From Candidatus Bathyarchaeota archaeon (GTDB taxonomy: Archaea; Thermoproteota; Bathyarchaeia; Bathyarchaeales; Bathycorpusculaceae): DNA of 10,790 nucleotides. A program made the position numbers and the translations under genes. The stretch is taken from positions 1 to 10,790 of the forward strand of contig CAVZKL010000001.1 in assembly GCA_963775895.1 (NCBI GenBank), read 5' to 3'. The notes beneath the pieces were generated by a model. It saw only the letters and a program-made list of their open reading frames with translations, was not told the DNA's origin and searched no databases. Shown one piece after another: positions 141 to 10,790 of the stretch. Position 1 is the stretch's first letter, and each line of letters starts with the position of its first letter.

Positions 141-551
141 TCACATGAGCGCTCTGGGTTCTTCGATCTTTCTCAGCAATGGACGTAGCGGTGAATGGGT
201 GATGCCGTCTTCGCCTGTGTTCTTGAACATGCTCGGTGAGCCTATTTTTCTGCATATGAAGTTGAGCGAGTCCTCGGTGAAGTTCAGCATGTTTTGTCCT
301 TCGTTTGTTAGTTTGTACACTTTTCTGGGTCTTTCGCTTGTCATTTCCCAGTCGCTTTTTACAAACCCTTTCTTTTCCAGTGTTCCGAGTAGCGGGTAGA
401 TTGTGCTTGGGCCGAAGTAGACGCCGAAGCTTCTGCGTATTTTCGTTATGATCTGGTAACCGTGCATTGGTTGTCCGTTCAGGAACTGTAGTATTATTAG
501 GTCGAGGAGGCCTTTCATGAGTTTTGTTTGGACTTCTTTCGTGTTATTCAT
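141..551 (-). CDS. PadR-family transcriptional regulator (136 aa, C-terminal extension)
   Basis: KGLLDLIILQFLNGQPMHGYQII...FGPSTIYPLLGTLEKKGFV...RPRKVYKLTNEG is a typical PadR wHTH. Start placed at ATG 551 (MNNTKEV) because the longer 611 start runs through promoter-like inverted repeats. Confidence 0.92.
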   Translation of the reverse strand: MNNTKEVQTKLMKGLLDLIILQFLNGQPMHGYQIITKIRRSFGVYFGPSTIYPLLGTLEKKGFVKSDWEMTSERPRKVYKLTNEGQNMLNFTEDSLNFICRKIGSPSMFKNTGEDGITHSPLRPLLRKIEEPRALM

Positions 552-578
552 TCGAACACTTTCGGTTTTTGTGGTTTT

Positions 579-601
579 GTTCAACAGTCTGCCTGTTGAA
601 C
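579..601. promoter_or_regulatory. Perfect 9-bp inverted repeat GTTCAACAG-N5-CTGTTGAAC, candidate operator or 5' UTR hairpin
   Basis: Seen directly; lies 28-50 nt upstream of the PadR start at 551; the same half-site recurs at 2262-2297. Confidence 0.5.
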
Positions 602-610
602 GGATATACA

Positions 611-632
611 ATATGTCTTTCCCCAGACATAT
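611..632. promoter_or_regulatory. Candidate PadR operator 1: ATATGTCT-N6-AGACATAT (core ATGT-N10-ACAT, 613-630)
   Basis: Perfect 8-bp inverted repeat just downstream of a minus-strand TATA-like CTATAAAG (646-639); ATGT/ACAT half-sites are known from bacterial PadR-family operators. Confidence 0.6.
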
Positions 633-672
633 CTTGAGTCTTTATAGACACTAAACCATAATATAAACGTTC

Positions 673-690
673 ATGCTTACTCGTGAGCAT
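673..690. promoter_or_regulatory. Candidate PadR operator 2: ATGC-N10-GCAT
   Basis: ATGCTTACTCGTGAGCAT, same 18-bp geometry as 613-630 and 761-778. Confidence 0.5.
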
Positions 691-760
691 AACAAAACAT
701 AATCAAACATACGTTGAAACGGGGTCATCGATCATAAGTCTAATAAGCCAAAACATCGAC

Positions 761-778
761 ATGTACCAAACGAGACAT
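761..778. promoter_or_regulatory. Candidate PadR operator 3: ATGT-N10-ACAT
   Basis: ATGTACCAAACGAGACAT, between a TATA-like CTAATAAG (740-747) and the TTG start at 798. Confidence 0.55.
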
Positions 779-797
779 AAGCAGATCCCGTGAAAAC

Positions 798-1136
798 TTG
801 TCTGACCACTACGAAAAACAACTTGTACAACGCATAACCAGAAATCTGCTCGATGTCCAAGTTTTGAGGCTCGTAAGCACCCAGCCGATGTGGGGATACA
901 TGATAAAAAAGGAGGCAGAAGCAAAATTCAACGTCACACTCCGACACGGCGCATTATACCCCCTCCTCAACACCATGGAGAAAGAAAGCTTCCTCACGAG
1001 CGAGAAGCAATCCAAGGGCGGAAGAACAAGGAAGGTGTACAAACTGACCCCCAAGGGCGAACAGTACCTGGAAGCCTACGAGCACGTGTTGAGGGAACAA
1101 CTGGACCGAAAAGACGTCGAGTTGAAACCCAAATAG
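798..1136 (+). CDS. PadR-family transcriptional regulator (112 aa, TTG start)
   Basis: RNLLDVQVLRLVSTQPMWGYMI...HGALYPLLNTMEKESFL...GRTRKVYKLTPKG PadR wHTH motifs. Confidence 0.92.
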   Translation: MSDHYEKQLVQRITRNLLDVQVLRLVSTQPMWGYMIKKEAEAKFNVTLRHGALYPLLNTMEKESFLTSEKQSKGGRTRKVYKLTPKGEQYLEAYEHVLREQLDRKDVELKPK

Positions 1137-1152
1137 GATTGTGCCGCTAGTT

Positions 1153-1160
1153 CTTAAATA
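1153..1160 (+). promoter_or_regulatory. TATA-like box CTTAAATA; probable leaderless promoter of the prenyltransferase gene
   Basis: Ends about 25 nt upstream of ATG 1185, the expected archaeal spacing; no SD before the ATG. Confidence 0.5.
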
Positions 1161-1184
1161 CGACCTGCACACAACGTAAACAGC

Positions 1185-2181
1185 ATGGAGAAGCAAAGAC
1201 GAAAAACGTCTCAGATCATAATAGAAGAATTGCAGCAACGCAGCAAAGAATGCCAAGGGTTTGTGAGATCAACCTTCAGATCCGAAAGAATCGAAGACCC
1301 AGAACTTCGAAAAGCGTTGGAGCATTATTTCTCATACTGGAACGATTTCACACATCCAGGCTTGTTCTCATTCTCATTCGAGGCTGCCGGAGGAAGACTC
1401 GACAAGGCTTTGAAGCCTCAAGCAGCAATAGCTATGATAGCCGCAGGCTTTGACATACACGATGACATTATTGACGGATCGCAAGAGAAGCAAAACCATC
1501 AAACGGTCTTCGGAAAGTATGGGCAGAATCTGTCTCTGCTGCTCGGAAACGCGTTCATGATAAATGGCCTAACGCTCCTGGGACTCTCGATTTCAGATTT
1601 GCCAGCCGAAAGGTTCAGGAAGGTAATCGAAACAGCCAAGAAGTGCTTGTTTGAGGTGGGAAACGCTCACGCACTTGAACTCCCCCTCAAAGGAGTCACC
1701 GCTAGTTTCCCAGCAAAAATACTTTGAAATCATTGAGATGAAAGCAGCAAGCGTTGAAGCAGATATGCACATCGCAGGTCTGATCGCGTCCGACAGATCG
1801 GACGTCAGCGAGGCCTTGCGAGAATACGGCAGAATCTTAGGCACGTTGGCAACTCTGAGAGAAGAGTTTGTGGACGTCTTCGAGGTTGCAGAATTAAATC
1901 GACGCTTGCGCAAAGAGGCATTACCCATCCCGATTGCGTTTGCCCTGAAAGATGCTGACCTGAAGGAAAGAATCCTTAAAAAGTTAAAGAAAAGGGAGCT
2001 AACAAAGACTGACGTTGACGCTCTAGTCGACCTGGTTTTCCATTCCGAGTCAATCAGTGCGTTAAAGAGCAAGATGGAAAAGCTTTGCATTAGGGCGGAA
2101 GTGTTAGCTGATAGACTCGAAACCCAGAAATACAAGACGGTATTTAGAGAACTAGCTAGATCGACTCTCGAAGACCTGTAA
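1185..2181 (+). CDS. Polyprenyl synthetase-family (class I isoprenoid synthase fold) protein, non-canonical, ComQ-like; one +1 frameshift at about 1680-1712
   Basis: ORF 1185-1727 has DIHDDIID (first Asp-rich motif, DDIID at 1461-1475) and LLLGNAF; ORF 1651-2181 continues with YFEIIEMKAA, ALREYGRILG, LREEFVD. Joined length is about 330 aa. Confidence 0.85.
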
Positions 2182-2188
2182 ACCTAAT

Positions 2189-2239
2189 CTACAGAGGAAA
2201 AGTTCTCACTGGAACGTTCCGTTTCTTAACCTTCGCCAT
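2189..2239 (-). CDS. Putative 16-aa precursor/signal peptide MAKVKKRNVPVRTFPL
   Basis: Minus strand reads GTAGAGGGATTAAG-ATG GCG AAG GTT AAG AAA CGG AAC GTT CCA GTG AGA ACT TTT CCT CTG TAG. SD-like GAGGG (2250-2246) and purine-rich BRE plus TATA-like AAAAGACTTAAGTA (2289-2276). The stop lies 7 nt from the prenyltransferase stop (convergent). Too short to verify without homologues. Confidence 0.55.
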   Translation of the reverse strand: MAKVKKRNVPVRTFPL

Positions 2240-2261
2240 CTTAATCCCTCTACTGTATATG

Positions 2262-2297
2262 TGTTCAACAGCCATTACTTAAGTCTTTTGTTGAACA
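2262..2297. promoter_or_regulatory. Inverted repeat TGTTCAACA-N18-TGTTGAACA bracketing the TATA-like palindrome ACTTAAGT; divergent peptide/MFS promoter region
   Basis: Seen directly; half-sites match those at 578-602; also contains AAGT-N10-ACAT (2281-2298), a one-mismatch version of the PadR-type box. Confidence 0.5.
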
Positions 2298-2344
2298 TGA
2301 ATACAGTTGCTGACTCAACAAATGTTTTATCATGGAATGAATGA

Positions 2345-3618
2345 ATGATGCTTGAACGGTCGCCACGATCAATGTCGCCGATGAACATCCTGAAGAACCG
2401 TATTCCATTAAGACAATTCGCTCCCGCCGCGGTACTGATACTTGACAGCCTCGTGTGGTTCACTTTGCTCAATCAGATGCTGAGCAATCTAGTAGACAGC
2501 ATGGTGTTAACATCGACTGAAAACATGTTCTTGCATGGGGTCTACTACGCCGGGATTGCAGTTGCAGCCGTACCAGGAGCCCTAGTCTCAATACGCAAAA
2601 GAGAAAACTACCTTTTCGCGTGGATGCTTTTCGGTTCATTAATGACAGCGTTACCAGCCATAATTATCTCCGAACAAATCTACGTAAACGCTCTTATCCT
2701 GGGCCTTGCTGGCGCCTCAGTCGGCCTCGGCTTGCCTTCATGCTTAGCCTATTTTGCAGATTCAACGGCTGTTGAAAACAGAGGCACCTACGGCGGCATA
2801 GCGTGGAGCGCGGTTGGTTTCAGCGTCCTTGGATTCGCATTGGGTATGAGCAGCCTAGGTCTGAGTACTCTCCAAACGCTTTTGGCCCTGGCTGTTTGGA
2901 GAGCAGCGGGACTTCCGATTTTCTTCATACTCTCAAAACTCAGAGGAATTACGGAGCAATCGCCTTCCAGACCGGGTTACGGTGCCATTTTGAGAAGAAG
3001 AGACGTGGCTCTGTACCTTCTACCTTGGATCATGTTTTCCATAATCAATTTCGCAGAAGTCCCCATAGTAATGAAAGGGCTCAAAATATCGTTTGCAGAA
3101 CGCCGTGGCTCATAGACTACATCGGCTTCATTGAATTTGCGATTTCAGGGATATTTGCCGCAGTCGGCGGCTTGATCGCGGATCAGGTTGGAAGAAAGCG
3201 AGTAGTGATCACGGGCTTCGTGATTTTTGGCATCGAATATGCCGTCTTGAGCCTTTTTTCAGAAATCCCAGCGTCTTGGTACGTGTACACGGTCTTCGAT
3301 GGAATCGCCTGGGGAATGTTCGCTTCGGTCTTCTTCATGACTGTTTGGGGAGACCTAGCCCAGGCCAGTCAGAAAGAAAAGTTCTACGTCTTGGGAGGAC
3401 TCCCGTATTTGCTTGCAAGCTTCATTCCTGTTTTGGTGAAGCCGTTCACACAAGGAATAGAGACGACGACGGCTTTCTCTCTTGCAAGCTTTTTCCTCTT
3501 CATTGCCGTTCTTCCGCTGGTGTACGCACCTGAAACTCTGCCCGAGAAGAAAATACTGGAAAGGGAACTGAGAGATTACGTTGAAAGAGCGAAGAAAGCT
3601 AAGGAGAAATACGCTTAA
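2345..3618 (+). CDS. MFS transporter; one -1 frameshift near 3099-3100; start uncertain (2345, 2372 or 2381)
   Basis: Many hydrophobic helices in both halves; AYFADSTAVENRG, motif A-like GGLIADQVGRKR and C-terminal PETL. Adding one A at GCAGAA(A)CGCCG gives a continuous FAETPWLIDYIGF. Confidence 0.88.
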
Positions 3619-3651
3619 GAGAGGGCATTCTGCTTTCTAAACGGAAACGGC

Positions 3652-4773
3652 ATGTTCTTCCACGTGATACTGACCACTGAATGCAACTCCCAGTGCAGCT
3701 ACTGTTACGGTGAGTCACTGCTCGACATGGATGATGACCTCCCCGATCTTGAAGTTGATTACTCACTGCCAAGAAAGATTAGCTACCCCATATCAGAACT
3801 GAAAAAATTCTGCTCCAAGGACCCCTACTGCGTACTAACGTTCTATGGCGGAGAACCACTTCTTTGCTTAGACGAAATCAGACAGGTCATGGACGAAGTG
3901 CACCCGCCGCTCTTCATGATCCAAACGAACGGTCTGAGGTTGAACTCTCTCGAATCAAGTTACGTGAATCGCTTCCACACGATTCTCGTTTCAATCGACG
4001 GCGACGAAGCGCTAACCGATCTCTACAGAGGAAAGGGAACCTACAGGAAAGTTGTTGACAACCTGAAGCTGATAAGAAGAAATGGCTTCAAAGGCGAACT
4101 GATTGCCCGAATGACGGTCATGGAAAACACTGACATCTACAAGCAAGTCCGTTGGCTTCTGGAAAACGAAGAGTTACCCTTTTCCTCCATTCACTGGCAA
4201 CTCAACGCAGGGTTCTGGAAAACCGATTTTGCGCGGAGAGACTTCAGGGCATGGAGCGAAGATAGCTACAACCCGGGCATCCAAAAACTAGCCGACTTCT
4301 GGGTGAACCAAATGAAAAAAAGACGCGTCGTTCTACGGCTCTATCCCTTACTCGGCATCGCAGAATCAATGCTATCTGGGGAGAGAAGTCTTCTGCGTTG
4401 TGGCGGCGGATGGATAAACTACGCAGTTCAGACGGATGGAAACATAATCCCGTGTCCAACCATGTGGGGCATGAAGAAACAATACTTGGGTCACATAAGC
4501 GAAGCTGATCCGTTGAAGCTCAACAAGGTTTTTGTCTCTGAACCGTGTACGCTCTGCAATTCGCTGGATCTGTGCGGCGGGCGATGCTTTTACGCAAACG
4601 TGATGAAACGTTGGGACCCGCAGGCATACGACATAGTGTGCAGCACAGTGCGCAACTTGATCGAAGCAGTTTCTCGACAAGTGCCAGAGATTCAGAAACT
4701 CATTCAAGCCACCAAAGTAAAGTTTAGGGATTTTGAGTTCGTCAGGTACAATGGGTGCGAAATAATCCCTTAG
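3652..4773 (+). CDS. Radical SAM/SPASM-domain protein, AF0577 (TIGR04084)-like putative peptide-modifying enzyme
   Basis: CNSQCSYC (CxxxCxxC), FYGGEPLL, IQTNG, VSIDG; SPASM-type cysteines RCGGG, PCP, CTLCNSLDLCGGRC, VC; C-terminus YNGCEIIP. Confidence 0.9.
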   Translation: MFFHVILTTECNSQCSYCYGESLLDMDDDLPDLEVDYSLPRKISYPISELKKFCSKDPYCVLTFYGGEPLLCLDEIRQVMDEVHPPLFMIQTNGLRLNSLESSYVNRFHTILVSIDGDEALTDLYRGKGTYRKVVDNLKLIRRNGFKGELIARMTVMENTDIYKQVRWLLENEELPFSSIHWQLNAGFWKTDFARRDFRAWSEDSYNPGIQKLADFWVNQMKKRRVVLRLYPLLGIAESMLSGERSLLRCGGGWINYAVQTDGNIIPCPTMWGMKKQYLGHISEADPLKLNKVFVSEPCTLCNSLDLCGGRCFYANVMKRWDPQAYDIVCSTVRNLIEAVSRQVPEIQKLIQATKVKFRDFEFVRYNGCEIIP

Positions 4774-6947: not shown

Positions 6948-7142
6948 TATTTGTAGTATGTTATGTAGAAGTATAAGGTCAAACACGAATCTAAGGGGCA
7001 CGAAGAGGGAGATGTTAAGTGAAGTTAATCACAATCTACGTGCCCGAAACTTACTTAAAAGCTTTAGACCAACTCGTGGGCGAACGGTTCTACCCGAATA
7101 GAGCCGAAGCCATCAGAGTTGCGATCCGTGATTTGGTAAACG

Positions 7143-8288
7143 ATGAACTCTGGCGGAGGGAAAACGTTGGCTAAGGTTCGCCCTGCGGAAAACTTGCTCA
7201 TGTACTCACAGCATCGTGCCGAAGCTCAAGGAGTGGGTAATAGCGGCGAATGCAGGATTGCGGTGGTCGGCGTTGGAACCGGCGGCAGCAACACAGTAAG
7301 CAGACTGAAGGAATCAGGATCAACTTCAGCAAAATGCGTCATCATAGACACTGATTGTGCCAAATTGAAATATTCGAGGGCGGACGAGAAAATTCTCATC
7401 GGCCAAAAACTCACGAAGGGACGCGGTGTTCACAGAAATCCAAAACTCGGCAGAGCCGCCGCAGAAGAATCTAGGAAGAGCGTGGACGCTTTGCTCTCAA
7501 AGGTTGAAATTGCTTTCATAACCGCTGGACTAGGTGGTGGAACCGGTGCTGGTGCCGCTCCGATTGTCGCTGAAATCATGAGAAGCAAAGGCGCAGCAAC
7601 GGTCGGCGTCGTCACAATGCCTTTCCGCGTTGAAAAAGGCAGAGACAAGAGTGCTGCAGAAGCGTTGGCTGAGATGCGAAGACATTGTGACACAGTTGTC
7701 GTGATAGACAACGACAAGCTGGCGCAGCTCGCACCGCACCTGCCGATGGACGAGGCCTTCAAAGTTTCTGACCAAGTGCTAGCAAACATGATAAAAGGAA
7801 TCGTCGAAACCATCTCAACGCCAAGTTTGATCAATCTTGATTTCGCGGACTTCAAAACCATCATCAGCCACGGCGGAATGGCAGTTGTCGGCGTGGGCGA
7901 ATCTGACGCACCGAACAGGGCTGAAGAGGCCGTACGAAACGCCTTCAGGACTCCTCTGTACGATCTGAGTTACGCAGGAGCAACGGGAGCTCTGATACAC
8001 GTGACGGGTGACAACCGTATGACAATTCAAGAGGCAAACCGTGTAGGCGAGATCGCGTCAGAAATAATGGAAGGCAACGTTCGAGTTGTGTGGAGCGCAA
8101 AGGTGGATCCTCAACAGGAAGGAAAGCTGAAGGTTACGCTGGTGATGACGGGTTTAGATTCGCCTCAAAGAGAAAGCCGCTTCGGATCGATTGCACCGCA
8201 ACTTTTCAACTTGGAACCCTACGCAGGGCACGAGAAGTCTCTAGGAATAGACCTTGACCTTTACCAGATGGAACGTGGCGCGAGCTAA
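7143..8288 (+). CDS. ftsZ: Cell division protein FtsZ, divergent paralogue (alternative start TTG 7167 after SD GGAGGG)
   Basis: VVGVGTGGSN, FITAGLGGGTGAGAAP tubulin signature, PFRVE, IDNDKL, T7 loop INLDFAD, GATGALIHVTG, VTLVMTG. Confidence 0.93.
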   Translation: MNSGGGKTLAKVRPAENLLMYSQHRAEAQGVGNSGECRIAVVGVGTGGSNTVSRLKESGSTSAKCVIIDTDCAKLKYSRADEKILIGQKLTKGRGVHRNPKLGRAAAEESRKSVDALLSKVEIAFITAGLGGGTGAGAAPIVAEIMRSKGAATVGVVTMPFRVEKGRDKSAAEALAEMRRHCDTVVVIDNDKLAQLAPHLPMDEAFKVSDQVLANMIKGIVETISTPSLINLDFADFKTIISHGGMAVVGVGESDAPNRAEEAVRNAFRTPLYDLSYAGATGALIHVTGDNRMTIQEANRVGEIASEIMEGNVRVVWSAKVDPQQEGKLKVTLVMTGLDSPQRESRFGSIAPQLFNLEPYAGHEKSLGIDLDLYQMERGAS

Positions 8289-8301
8289 CCCTAACTACAA
8301 A

Positions 8302-8328
8302 TTCTCTTTTTCTAATCCTTCTTTCTTA
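8302..8328 (+). terminator. Pyrimidine/T-rich terminator candidate after ftsZ
   Basis: TTCTCTTTTTCTAATCCTTCTTTCTT begins about 13 nt after the stop. Confidence 0.4.
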
Positions 8329-8418
8329 AAGTGTTTTCTCATATCGTAATATGTCAGATTTCGAAATAACCCTCTATAAACATGCAACCACCTCTTCTTC
8401 AGATCAGAGGATAAGCCA

Positions 8419-8622
8419 ATGGTTGATTGCCCAAAATGCGGAGAACCCCTCGTTAAAGGAGGAAAGGGCAAGTACTTCTGCGAGAACGACCAGTGCTCAG
8501 TGATATTTGTCAGATATCCCTCATTTCCGAGCAAAACTAAGCTGGTTGCTTCATCCTTGGCGAAGCCCGACAAAACATTTCGAATCAAAACACATGCAGA
8601 TATAGACCTCATTAAAGCCTAG
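8419..8622 (+). CDS. Small zinc-ribbon protein (CPKC...CENDQC), 67 aa
   Basis: MVDCPKCGEPL...KYFCENDQC; upstream TATA-like CTATAAA and SD-like GAGG. Confidence 0.65.
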   Translation: MVDCPKCGEPLVKGGKGKYFCENDQCSVIFVRYPSFPSKTKLVASSLAKPDKTFRIKTHADIDLIKA

Positions 8623-8956
8623 TTTGATCTGTGATTTTCAAGAACTGTATCGTTATCTGATTGACGATTTCGTTATTCAGTATTGCAGAAAACTGAACAG
8701 AAAAGACTTCACTGTGAAATCAGAAGATTTCTCAACAAAGCGAAAGGGCAAAAGGGAATATCTTAACGATTCTCAGACACATGATTTTGTCAAGGCTCTG
8801 AATCAGTATTTCCAGAGCAAAATCAAAATGCCAAGAGTTAGAATGGGTGAACAACAGGAAATTGAAACATTGATCAATGAAGAAGCTTTACTGTTGGCTC
8901 AGTATCTGAGAAATGAAAGGCAAGAATGGAATCCTAGACTCGGTGGAATTGCTTGA
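8615..8956 (+). pseudogene. cas1: C-terminal fragment of a stand-alone Cas1 (Cas1-solo/casposase-like)
   Basis: In-frame KPSLICDFQELYRYLIDDFVI matches the Cas1 SLxxDxxExxR motif; ends LINEEALLLAQYLRNERQEWNPR. An in-frame stop lies at 8603-8605, and the N-terminal domain and GFLH motif are absent. Confidence 0.75.
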
Positions 8957-8974
8957 TGTCTCAGAAAAAGGGAG

Positions 8975-9036
8975 GCGCGCGCGCTAGAAAACAGTATGCC
9001 TTCCTTCAAAAAGTTTGGGCTGAGAGAGCGCGCGCG
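8975..9036. repeat. Two (GC)n tracts forming a 10-bp inverted repeat CGCGCGCGCT...AGCGCGCGCG
   Basis: (GC)5 at 8975-8984 and GCGCGCGCG at 9028-9036; arms 8976-8985 and 9027-9036 are 41 nt apart. Confidence 0.6.
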
Positions 9037-9363
9037 AGGGAAAGCGCTTCCTTCGGCATCTCCTTGAGCATTCTGATCTTGCGCCTTTCCATTTCCGTCC
9101 ACATTTCTACTGCGTAGATGGACAGGAGAGCCTCTTTCCCTGCGGGTGTTAAATCGTACAGCCCATCTCCCCTGACCGCCACAAGTTCTCCCAGTTCTTA
9201 AGATGATAGTCGACGTTTCCGCTGCTCGCATAGCCAAGCTGTCTTTCAGGGAAGCGAAACTGGAAGGCTGCTTCTCAAGGATCTTAAGAATCTTGATCCG
9301 TACAGGATGCGCGATCGCCTCGAAAAGCTCTGCAGAATCTACCATCGCAAATCCTGAAACCAT
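8984..9363 (-). pseudogene. ArsR-type winged HTH regulator with two -1 frameshifts (about 9245 and 9195), possibly 3'-truncated
   Basis: ELFEAIAHPVRIKILKILEKQPSSFASLK; restoring one A in each of two A-runs gives RQLGYASSGNVDYHLKKLGELV...DGLYDLTPAGKEAL, a complete ArsR wHTH, ending at TAG 8986-8984. Confidence 0.75.
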
Positions 9364-9507
9364 TCTGTGAAACGTTTCTACTTAATCCTTGCTGTATCAG
9401 CGCGCGGTGGTGAAAACTGAAAGTTTCATAAGCAACTTGTACTCATGCTTGCAACAGTATTGTAGTCAACTCAATTTACGCATTCGACTGAAGAAGGTGT
9501 AGACAAA

Positions 9508-10790
9508 ATGAAAAGCCTGCTAATTCTGATTCTAATCGGAGTTATGTGTTTTTCAATGTCCCTGTCACTGTTGAGCATTAATTCGGTGAACGGTGTATCG
9601 CCTAGGTTGATTAGGGTTATGAGTTCCGTGACAGGCTTGAACTCTACAACTCTCGGAAACTCGACTGGTCCGCTGCCTCTAAGTGGCATCCCCTTCAGTT
9701 TGAACATTTCATTGAGCGGCGAAACAACTAACTTAGGAACTTGGCAGGTGGCGATCACGTTTGACAATAACTCGTTAAGATGTACTGACATTTCAATACC
9801 CGAGTCCGATCCAACCTACGTTTTTCACGGTCTACAAGAAATAAAAGCGGTTGATTTCAGTGACACAGCTCAAAATGGGACATACACGGGAGGAAAACCT
9901 GAGATTGTCGCTGGAGGCGCTTTGTTGGACGTGACCCAAGCGGTGTCAACGAACAACTCTTTGCTATGTACAATGAACTTCACGTCGTTCAAGGTGGGCA
10001 AGGAAATGAGACCACAATTTCGTTCTGGCCCTACAATCCCGCGAGTGAGACGTTTTTGTGGGACAGTAATGGTGTAGACATTCCGTTTGGCACCGAGGGT
10101 TTTTCGGTTAACATTCTAGAAGGCGTGCAGGCGCGCTTTGACGCGACGGGTCTGGATTCATCTGCCACCGCCACAGTCGTAACAGTCAATGGTTTCCTGT
10201 TAGCGCCAACCAAATGCCATACTCCACTTGGATTCAAAAAGGATCAACAGTGACCTATTTCTACAGCAACGTTACAAGTTCGATTGCTGGTAAACAGTTT
10301 GCATTAAATGAAGTGATAGGTCCAAACTCTCCGATTACTGTGACTACCTCGGTCAACATAACCGGAAACTACAAGACTCAGTACTATCTGACTGTGGCAT
10401 CAACTTCTGACTCGCCAAATCCAACAAGCGCTTGGTTCGACAACGGAACAAGCATCACAGCATCAGTCACTTCACCTTTGTCTGGTCCCCAAGGCACACG
10501 CTATGTCTGCACTGGCTGGTCTGGAACAGGAAGTGTTCCTTCCTCTGGAGGGGGTTCAAGCACAGTATTCACTCTGAATCAACCTTCGAGCATCACATGG
10601 AACTGGAAAACACTGTACCTTCTAACAGTATCCACAAGCCCTAGCTTTTTGAGTCCCCAACCTTCAAGGGCACCGATCGGTGAAAATGCTTCGGCAAACA
10701 GTTGGTGGTATGACTCTGCCACGAGCGTTGCCTTGACAGCTGAAACAGTGGAAAATTACACCTTCAATCTCTGGAAGGTTGACAATGTTC
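9508..10790 (+). CDS. Large secreted/surface glycoprotein: signal peptide, cohesin-like beta-sandwich, then beta-rich repeats; two -1 frameshifts (about 9997 and 10194); runs off the window
   Basis: MKSLLILILIGVMCFSMSLSLL signal; FSLNISL...LGTWQVAITFDNNSL...LLCTMNF cohesin-like pattern. Frame from 10214 is open to the window end, with repeats YKTQYYLTV..SAWFDNGT...YVCTGWSGTG / WKTLYLLTV...WWYDSAT...YTFNLWKVD; many NxS/T sequons. Confidence 0.8.

Follow-up and report, generated by a model that had tools for sequence, protein, structure and literature searches.

Peptide prenylation by enzymes with the fold of isoprenyl pyrophosphate synthases (IPPS) is known from a few pairs of bacterial genes. 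The closest described counterparts of the locus reported here are ComQ/ComX of Bacillus and StheQ/StheX of Sphaerobacter. Our locus is archaeal: it lies in a 10,790-nt stretch of contig CAVZKL010000001.1 from the metagenome-assembled genome of a Candidatus Bathyarchaeota archaeon (the window), and it combines a divergent trans-IPPS-fold enzyme, a tiny peptide gene and a major facilitator superfamily (MFS) transporter. As in ComQ and StheQ, the enzyme has an all-alpha trans-IPPS fold that keeps the first Asp-rich motif and appears to have given up the site for isopentenyl diphosphate (IPP). A small peptide gene again adjoins the enzyme gene and, as far as the available portions of the ComX and StheX descriptions go, most Bathyarchaeia peptides share with them a Trp one to two residues from the C-terminus. 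Unlike the two bacterial systems, the Bathyarchaeia peptide is only 8-25 residues long, is encoded on the strand opposite to the enzyme, comes from an archaeal host and, in the window, contains no Trp. Its partners also differ from those of ComQ/ComX, being the MFS transporter and PadR regulators rather than the ComP/ComA two-component system.

Two other proteins invite comparison. In Paenibacillus alvei, the IPPS-superfamily enzyme PalQ prenylates a Trp at the end of PalX, whose core DNVRRFFW resembles Bathyarchaeia tails such as ..PMRIFFW and ..PVRRW. Unlike the tiny peptides, PalX has a long NHLP-type leader, and the Pal cluster contains a histidine kinase; the likeness, taken from the accessible part of the PalQ report, is one of descriptions. 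By both sequence and fold, the best match of our enzyme is the geranylgeranyl diphosphate (GGPP) synthase of Pyrococcus horikoshii (1wy0), at about 20% identity and with the motif DIHDDIID in common. Unlike 1wy0, the enzyme has the GGKRVRP and RRG motifs replaced and matches PF00348 only weakly, and its genome encodes a separate canonical synthase. In the relevant section of a 2026 review, this kind of enzyme is represented by ComQ, the P domain of ChrPC and PalQ alone; Ord1, whose substrate is free tryptophan, is mentioned alongside them, and none of those named there is archaeal. Our own literature search found no description of such an archaeal system. The conserved trio of enzyme, peptide and MFS transporter points to an undescribed archaeal lipid-tagged peptide signal or antibiotic.

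A tiny gene at the end of the enzyme gene

The original prediction, made from this DNA alone, had proposed a ComQ/ComX-like prenylated-peptide module composed of two PadR regulators, an atypical isoprenoid-synthase-fold enzyme, a tiny ORF (open reading frame), an MFS transporter and a SPASM radical SAM enzyme. Each of these elements is present between positions 141 and 4773. The enzyme gene (1185..2181, + strand) is followed by a tiny gene of 16 codons on the opposite strand (2189..2239, - strand), encoding MAKVKKRNVPVRTFPL, a peptide in which a P-V-R core links a K/R-rich head to a hydrophobic tail. The tiny gene stops 8 nt past the enzyme stop at 2181, and its ATG is 105 nt from the divergent start of the MFS gene at 2345.

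This arrangement recurs throughout the class. A tiny ORF lies opposite the enzyme strand at the enzyme stop in 12 of 12 close loci and in 27 of the 30 loci of a class-wide search, where all three loci lacking it belong to a single genus (g27); it is also found in most of 40 further loci. We then applied a strict rule, namely an ATG start, 8-30 residues, at least two Lys or Arg, then P-x-R and a tail of 1-11 residues, to 80 species-level loci, 79 of which had enough room. Tiny ORFs of this form occur in 57 of the 79. The same rule found none on the same strand (0/79), none on either strand after the MFS stop (0/72) and 13 in 1580 shuffled windows. Relaxed inspection rescued 15 of the 22 loci missed by the rule, raising the count to about 72 of 79. 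In the rescued loci the ORF starts with GTG or TTG, has V-x-R or D-R in place of P-x-R, lies farther from the enzyme or follows a second enzyme copy. Tandem duplication of the enzyme gene was seen in some lineages (L056, L059, L099, L111), and there the tiny ORF occurs only after the second copy. In nearly all loci the tiny ORF ends between -31 and about +70 nt from the enzyme stop, and the peptides have 8-25 residues with a median of 16. Because the ORF keeps its place and strand in relatives, and the controls and shuffles are almost empty, its occurrence is beyond chance. A recurring small ORF beside enzyme homologues, for which the original prediction had proposed a search, is thus confirmed in 57 to about 72 of the 79 loci.

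The codons tell a similar story. Across 41 peptides, the Pro of P-x-R is written with four codons and the Arg with six. Among 12 ORFs of equal length, the Pro codon varies at its third base only, with all four letters represented, and the second base of the Arg codon is fixed. Ahead of the peptide ATG stands GAGGG, which resembles a Shine-Dalgarno (SD) motif and appears in the window as CCCTC on the + strand (2246-2250). A search of NCBIfam with two peptides of 20-21 residues returned no family. These comparisons indicate that the tiny ORF is a real gene under coding selection. The K-rich head does correspond to a T-rich run on the + strand directly after the enzyme stop, and the ORF could in principle be nothing but a T-rich terminator whose complement happens to read as Lys codons. 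Such a terminator would not account for the synonymous codon turnover at the P-x-R core, nor for the kept ATG or other start, the SD-like motif, the conserved aromatic tail and the empty controls, and we regard this explanation as very improbable.

We counted the neighbours of the enzyme gene in the same 80 loci, using only those with enough flanking sequence. The MFS gene lies downstream of the enzyme in 73 of 75 loci, and a divergent PadR pair lies upstream in 37 of 69, with a single PadR gene in two more. In a separate set of 40 loci, the MFS gene is in its canonical place in 37, the radical SAM gene is present in 20 and both PadR genes in 16. Among 13 loci from families f7 and f6 that lack the radical SAM gene, the PadR1, PadR2, enzyme and MFS clusters are the only ones common to all 13; in four of these maps the PadR1 or PadR2 ORF is unresolved. 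The conserved core consists of enzyme, peptide and MFS transporter, often with the PadR pair, and the MFS and PadR neighbours expected of enzyme homologues are therefore there, the former almost always and the latter in about half of the loci. The module was also seen on contigs carrying unexpected labels. Those labelled Caldiserica, Acidoferrum, Dehalococcoidales and Anaerolineales (L093, L115, L155, L170) carry a Bathyarchaeia-type module, probably through mis-binning, and others are labelled Hodarchaeaceae, Hadesarchaea/Hadarchaeota and Baldrarchaeota (L138, L157, L162, L159).

The radical SAM/SPASM gene (3652..4773, + strand; TIGR04084, 301.9 bits against a cut-off of 225) fared differently. 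In the window it begins 33 nt after the MFS gene on the same strand, it is adjacent in 44 of 60 loci, and its product bears a resemblance to the peptide maturases PapB and DynA, with scores (98.9 and 66 bits) far below the respective cut-offs. These features would suit a classical RiPP (a peptide made by the ribosome and modified after translation), in which the tiny peptide is the precursor and the adjacent TIGR04084 enzyme its maturase. However, TIGR04084 genes occur in 143 of 301 sampled Bathyarchaeia genomes, compared to 63 for the enzyme family. Reading the two tables together gives 50 genomes with both genes, 13 with the enzyme only and 93 with the radical SAM gene only, and Sulfolobus acidocaldarius, one of the controls, also has a TIGR04084 gene. 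No conserved neighbour was found at 16 radical SAM loci located away from the enzyme (L174-L189). The f7 and f6 loci keep the peptide without an adjacent radical SAM gene, which in f7 sits elsewhere or is missing, and Cys occurs in only 4 of 115 peptides. Because the radical SAM gene is far more widespread than the enzyme, has no shared neighbours and is absent from the f7 and f6 loci, we consider it probably a syntenic bystander in family f1 and not a part of the module, to which the original prediction had assigned it. A RiPP matured by this enzyme is accordingly quite improbable.

The enzyme, the peptide tails and the prenylation reading

The sequence of the enzyme sets it apart from canonical prenyl synthases. 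In the window it is read in two frames (1185-1727 and 1651-2181), which match polyprenyl_synt (PF00348) at 28.6 and 24.4 bits against a cut-off of 27; intact relatives carry PF00348. A canonical synthase elsewhere in the genome scores 212.7 bits on PF00348, compared to 27 and 22.9 bits for the enzyme halves. None of the NCBIfam equivalog cut-offs was reached (best 77.6 bits versus 468), and a search of the ESM Atlas returned only Bathyarchaeota polyprenyl-synthetase clusters. The AlphaFold2 model (predicted local distance difference test score of 93.7) has an all-alpha trans-IPPS fold. When the model was used as a Foldseek query, 1wy0 gave a template modelling (TM) score of 0.82, and the Trp prenyltransferase Ord1 ranked 23rd with a TM score of 0.71.

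Column counts from a 52-sequence alignment show which parts of the active site persist. The first Asp-rich motif DIHDDIID is retained, D94, D95, D98, T108, E166 and D231 are invariant in all 52 sequences, and the allylic-diphosphate/Mg site also keeps K187 and an acidic second motif. In prenyl synthases, the basic residues of GGKRVRP and RRG bind IPP. When the enzyme is aligned to 1wy0 (E 7.6e-35), GGKRVRP falls on W-x-D-x-x-[HR]-P (wndfthp) and RRG on K-x, with D55 in 41 of 52 sequences and position 58 occupied by H in 31 and R in 15. The basic residues that bind IPP (GKRxR, RRG) are thus missing. Since the allylic-diphosphate/Mg site is kept and these residues are lost, the enzyme most likely passes its prenyl group on to an acceptor that is not IPP.

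The tails of the neighbouring peptides suggest what that acceptor may be. Of 109 P-x-R peptides, 70 carry Trp in the tail; in 45 the last Trp stands in the penultimate position, and in 9 it is the C-terminal residue. Examples include ..PVRFWWA and ..PIRAWWR beside the two tails cited above. In the available portions of their descriptions, the modified Trp of known peptides lies in the same region: second from the C-terminus in StheX, at the C-terminus of the PalX core and third from the end in ComX168. Along the enzyme tree, the peptides fall into clade-specific families that co-diverge with the enzymes, and the tails without Trp are gathered in one large clade that includes the window's own.

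We favour, tentatively, a ComQ/ComX-like prenylated and exported peptide as the best reading of these sequences. The enzyme would prenylate the neighbouring peptide at its C-terminal tail, which is hydrophobic and usually contains Trp; the invariant P-x-R and the K/R-rich head may serve recognition or later cleavage, and the MFS transporter, which is of the efflux type, would export the product. This reading suits the Trp-less peptide of the window less well than it suits the family at large. Compared with the module first proposed, the conserved tiny ORF, the MFS transporter and a usually penultimate Trp hold up, whereas the radical SAM enzyme, a Trp in the window's peptide and the ComQ hallmarks do not.

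Several observations weigh against a ComQ/ComX-like enzyme and peptide. According to the available parts of a preprint, a review and the PalQ paper, ComQ-family enzymes keep the first motif, replace the second Asp-rich motif by a pseudo-motif (pseudo-SARM) NDxxD and carry a Gln one turn upstream. We compared these hallmarks by their text descriptions, and both the pseudo-SARM and the upstream Gln are lacking. Unlike in ComQ and StheQ as described there, the second motif reads [DE][DE]xxD after an Arg, or R-[DEN]-[ED]-x-x-D in full (position 227 is D in 25 sequences, E in 21 and N in 6; position 228 is E in 32 and D in 20; D231 is found in 52 of 52), and is acidic as in chain-elongating enzymes. 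Position 224, where the Gln would be expected, is T in 19, I in 17, S in 5 and Q in only 2 of the 52. Canonical synthases are closer than Ord1 both by fold and by sequence (E 7.6e-35 versus 1.1e-18). In at least 7 of the 79 loci, relaxed inspection found no tiny ORF although the enzyme is intact, and five of these also keep the MFS gene; the loci without the ORF include a clade of three species. The peptide of the window contains no Trp, nor do most of those in its clade, and certain tails (VIPI, AGP, VLP) lack aromatic residues entirely, while the characterised trans-isoprenyl diphosphate synthase (IDS)-like peptide prenyltransferases covered in the accessible part of the review all target Trp. 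The co-divergence of peptides and enzymes is also expected from the vertical descent of neighbours. Finally, the co-variation between peptide and enzyme that the original prediction suggested looking for did not emerge: when tail Trp was compared with the enzyme columns, no column came near significance, with only 7 independent contrasts.

Some of these points would fit an enzyme that makes a lipid rather than a lipopeptide. IDS-like enzymes have become terpene synthases, and our enzyme could be an IPPS-derived terpene synthase or an unusual prenyl diphosphate maker, its lipid being exported by the MFS transporter and sensed by the PadR pair, with the peptide as a separate small regulator or accessory. 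The acidic second motif and the closeness of the fold to canonical synthases are consistent with this, as is the persistence of enzyme and MFS gene in five of the seven loci without a recognisable peptide. The lost IPP-binding residues would also fit an enzyme that merely ionises an allylic diphosphate. However, a lipid product does not explain why, across the class, the peptide gene is so strictly placed tail-to-tail at the enzyme stop, nor why Trp stands at the position seen in ComQ-family substrates. We therefore find this alternative doubtful.

The intergenic regions of the locus provide a further view of its organization. LmrR is the PadR-family regulator of the LmrCD efflux pump. As in that system, PadR regulators stand beside an exporter gene and palindromic candidate operators are present; unlike in that system, two different PadR genes form a divergent pair and the exporter is of the MFS type. 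PadR1 (- strand; PF03551, 67.4 bits) is encoded at 141..551 within an ORF that remains open to a TTG at 611 (141-611, 156 aa). Because relatives align only from residue 21 of this 156-aa ORF, the true start is probably the ATG at 551. PadR2 (798..1136, + strand, 112 aa; PF03551, 67.3 bits) is divergent from PadR1 in the relatives' loci as well. By repeat search and conservation of the spacer DNA, we identified candidate operators between the two genes at 578..630. These are an inverted repeat, TGTTCAACA-N7-TGTTGAACg, at 578-602 (TGTTCAACA at 578, TGTTGAACg at 594), and a palindrome, ATATGTCT-N6-AGACATAT, at 609-630. The putative divergent control region of the peptide and MFS genes (2246..2297) holds, besides the SD-like motif, an inverted repeat of TGTTCAACA (2262-2270) and TGTTGAACA (2289-2297) flanking CTTAAG (2278-2283).

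The window contains three exact copies of the TGTTSAACA repeat, all within these two spacers, which upholds the earlier observation that the PadR and peptide promoters have repeats in common. With one mismatch allowed, the whole window contains 7 copies versus 3.9 expected, and 19 of 200 shuffles reach 7, which is chance level. In 71 other loci, GTTSAAC is about 11 times denser in the peptide/MFS spacers than in the rest (2.03 versus 0.18 per kb). At least two exact copies per spacer were found in only 2 of 71 peptide/MFS spacers and in 0 of 36 PadR spacers; relatives have a degenerate left half-site, and usually only the right one is exact. The PadR1/PadR2 spacer DNA is conserved in 10 of the 10 close loci displayed. 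In the reading that we favour, the TGTTSAACA inverted repeats would let the PadR pair control two promoters, its own and the divergent one of the peptide and MFS genes.

A few other features of these spacers were noted. The PadR1/PadR2 spacer (552-797) is unusually conserved, with DNA matches that reach other families of the order, and it also holds further palindromes and repeats, such as a repeated AAGCATA. The sequence AAATGTTTTATC at 2321-2331, 14-24 nt ahead of the MFS start, is conserved in many loci and may be the TATA box of a leaderless MFS transcript. A scan for bacterial-type promoters and terminators gave results at chance level.

The control region that peptide and MFS gene have in common, with its conserved inverted repeat, could also mean that the peptide works in its unmodified form. 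The MFS transporter would then export a short, cationic antimicrobial or signal rich in Trp and Arg, and the enzyme would have an unrelated lipid role and be linked to it by descent only. K/R-rich peptides with hydrophobic or Trp-rich tails would suit such a function. Yet the 3' end of the peptide gene is anchored to the enzyme stop, within the interval given above, and not to the MFS gene, and the enzyme, in a genome that also has a canonical synthase, is a divergent and dedicated paralogue. An unmodified peptide is, in our view, unlikely.

Reading frames and surrounding genes

In the window, both the enzyme and the MFS gene (2345..3618, + strand) are interrupted. The enzyme is read in two frames because of one extra base near 1703-1705; the MFS transporter, which lacks one base near 3101-3104, is likewise read in two (2345-3115 and 2803-3618; its C-terminal part gives 34.5 bits with PF07690). 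A DNA search matched 25 of 31 related genomes; two of them, from the same genus, are collinear over all 4.6 kb at 69-70% identity. The enzyme is a single intact ORF of 326-346 aa in 11 of 11 relatives' loci, and the MFS transporter is a single intact ORF of 404-461 aa in 9 of 11. Of the two remaining MFS loci, one is split into 99 and 324 aa (G005), and in the other only the C-terminal part was matched in that search (G018). We compared positions 1100-3700 with public contigs from three studies, four runs in all. Both runs whose contigs reach the enzyme site (X1 and X7) are one base shorter at 1703/1705, an additional base follows 3101-3104 in all four, and each single-base change brings back the frame seen in relatives. 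As the contigs of these near-identical strains contain neither shift, we conclude that both frameshifts are private to this assembly.

Elsewhere, a class-I aminoacyl-tRNA synthetase (genome G000, contig C22:23193-26172) is split into overlapping frames of 430 and 576 aa, which hints at frameshift errors in the assembly rather than decay. An insert of 1.2-2 kb separates the MFS and radical SAM genes in G001 (L011 5118-7184) and also in G002 and G004; within it are an ORF of 399 aa and a duplicate of part of the MFS C-terminus.

Beyond position 4773, the window contains housekeeping-looking genes for MazG-like and EF-Tu-domain-2-like proteins, a MiaB-like methylthiotransferase, a ribbon-helix-helix (RHH) protein and FtsZ. 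The RHH (CopG) ORF of 51 aa (7019-7174) overlaps the start of the FtsZ ORF (7143-8288). Several short or broken ORFs occupy the region from 8295 to 10789. One is a zinc-ribbon ORF (8419-8622), and another weakly resembles the C-terminus of Cas1 (8624-8956; 16.2 bits versus a cut-off of 22.3). A winged-helix-like ORF (8899-9363) is split, and a protein that looks secreted and is rich in serine and threonine extends over three frames (9508-10789) without matching Pfam. Neither the Rfam nor the tRNA scan of the window gave a match.

A possible lipid-tagged peptide in Bathyarchaeia

Taken beyond its likeness to ComQ/ComX, the locus may represent a new class of ribosomal lipopeptide, a proposal that we regard as plausible but uncertain. 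Its precursor of 8-25 residues would receive a prenyl group on its short tail from an enzyme of the IPPS fold whose evolution was independent of that of ComQ and PalQ, and a dedicated MFS transporter under PadR control would export it. In clades whose peptides have no Trp, the modification would fall on another residue. The product might serve in signalling or as an antibiotic.

Bathyarchaeia are abundant, uncultured archaea of sediment and peat, and we know of nothing reported on their cell-to-cell chemistry. Here, a tiny gene that gene callers overlook is tied, across the class, to a remodelled enzyme of the prenyl-synthase fold and an exporter. If our reading is true, its product would be the first archaeal lipidated ribosomal peptide, whether a prenylated signal or an antibiotic, and the enzyme would show that peptide prenylation arose from the IPPS fold a second time, independently.

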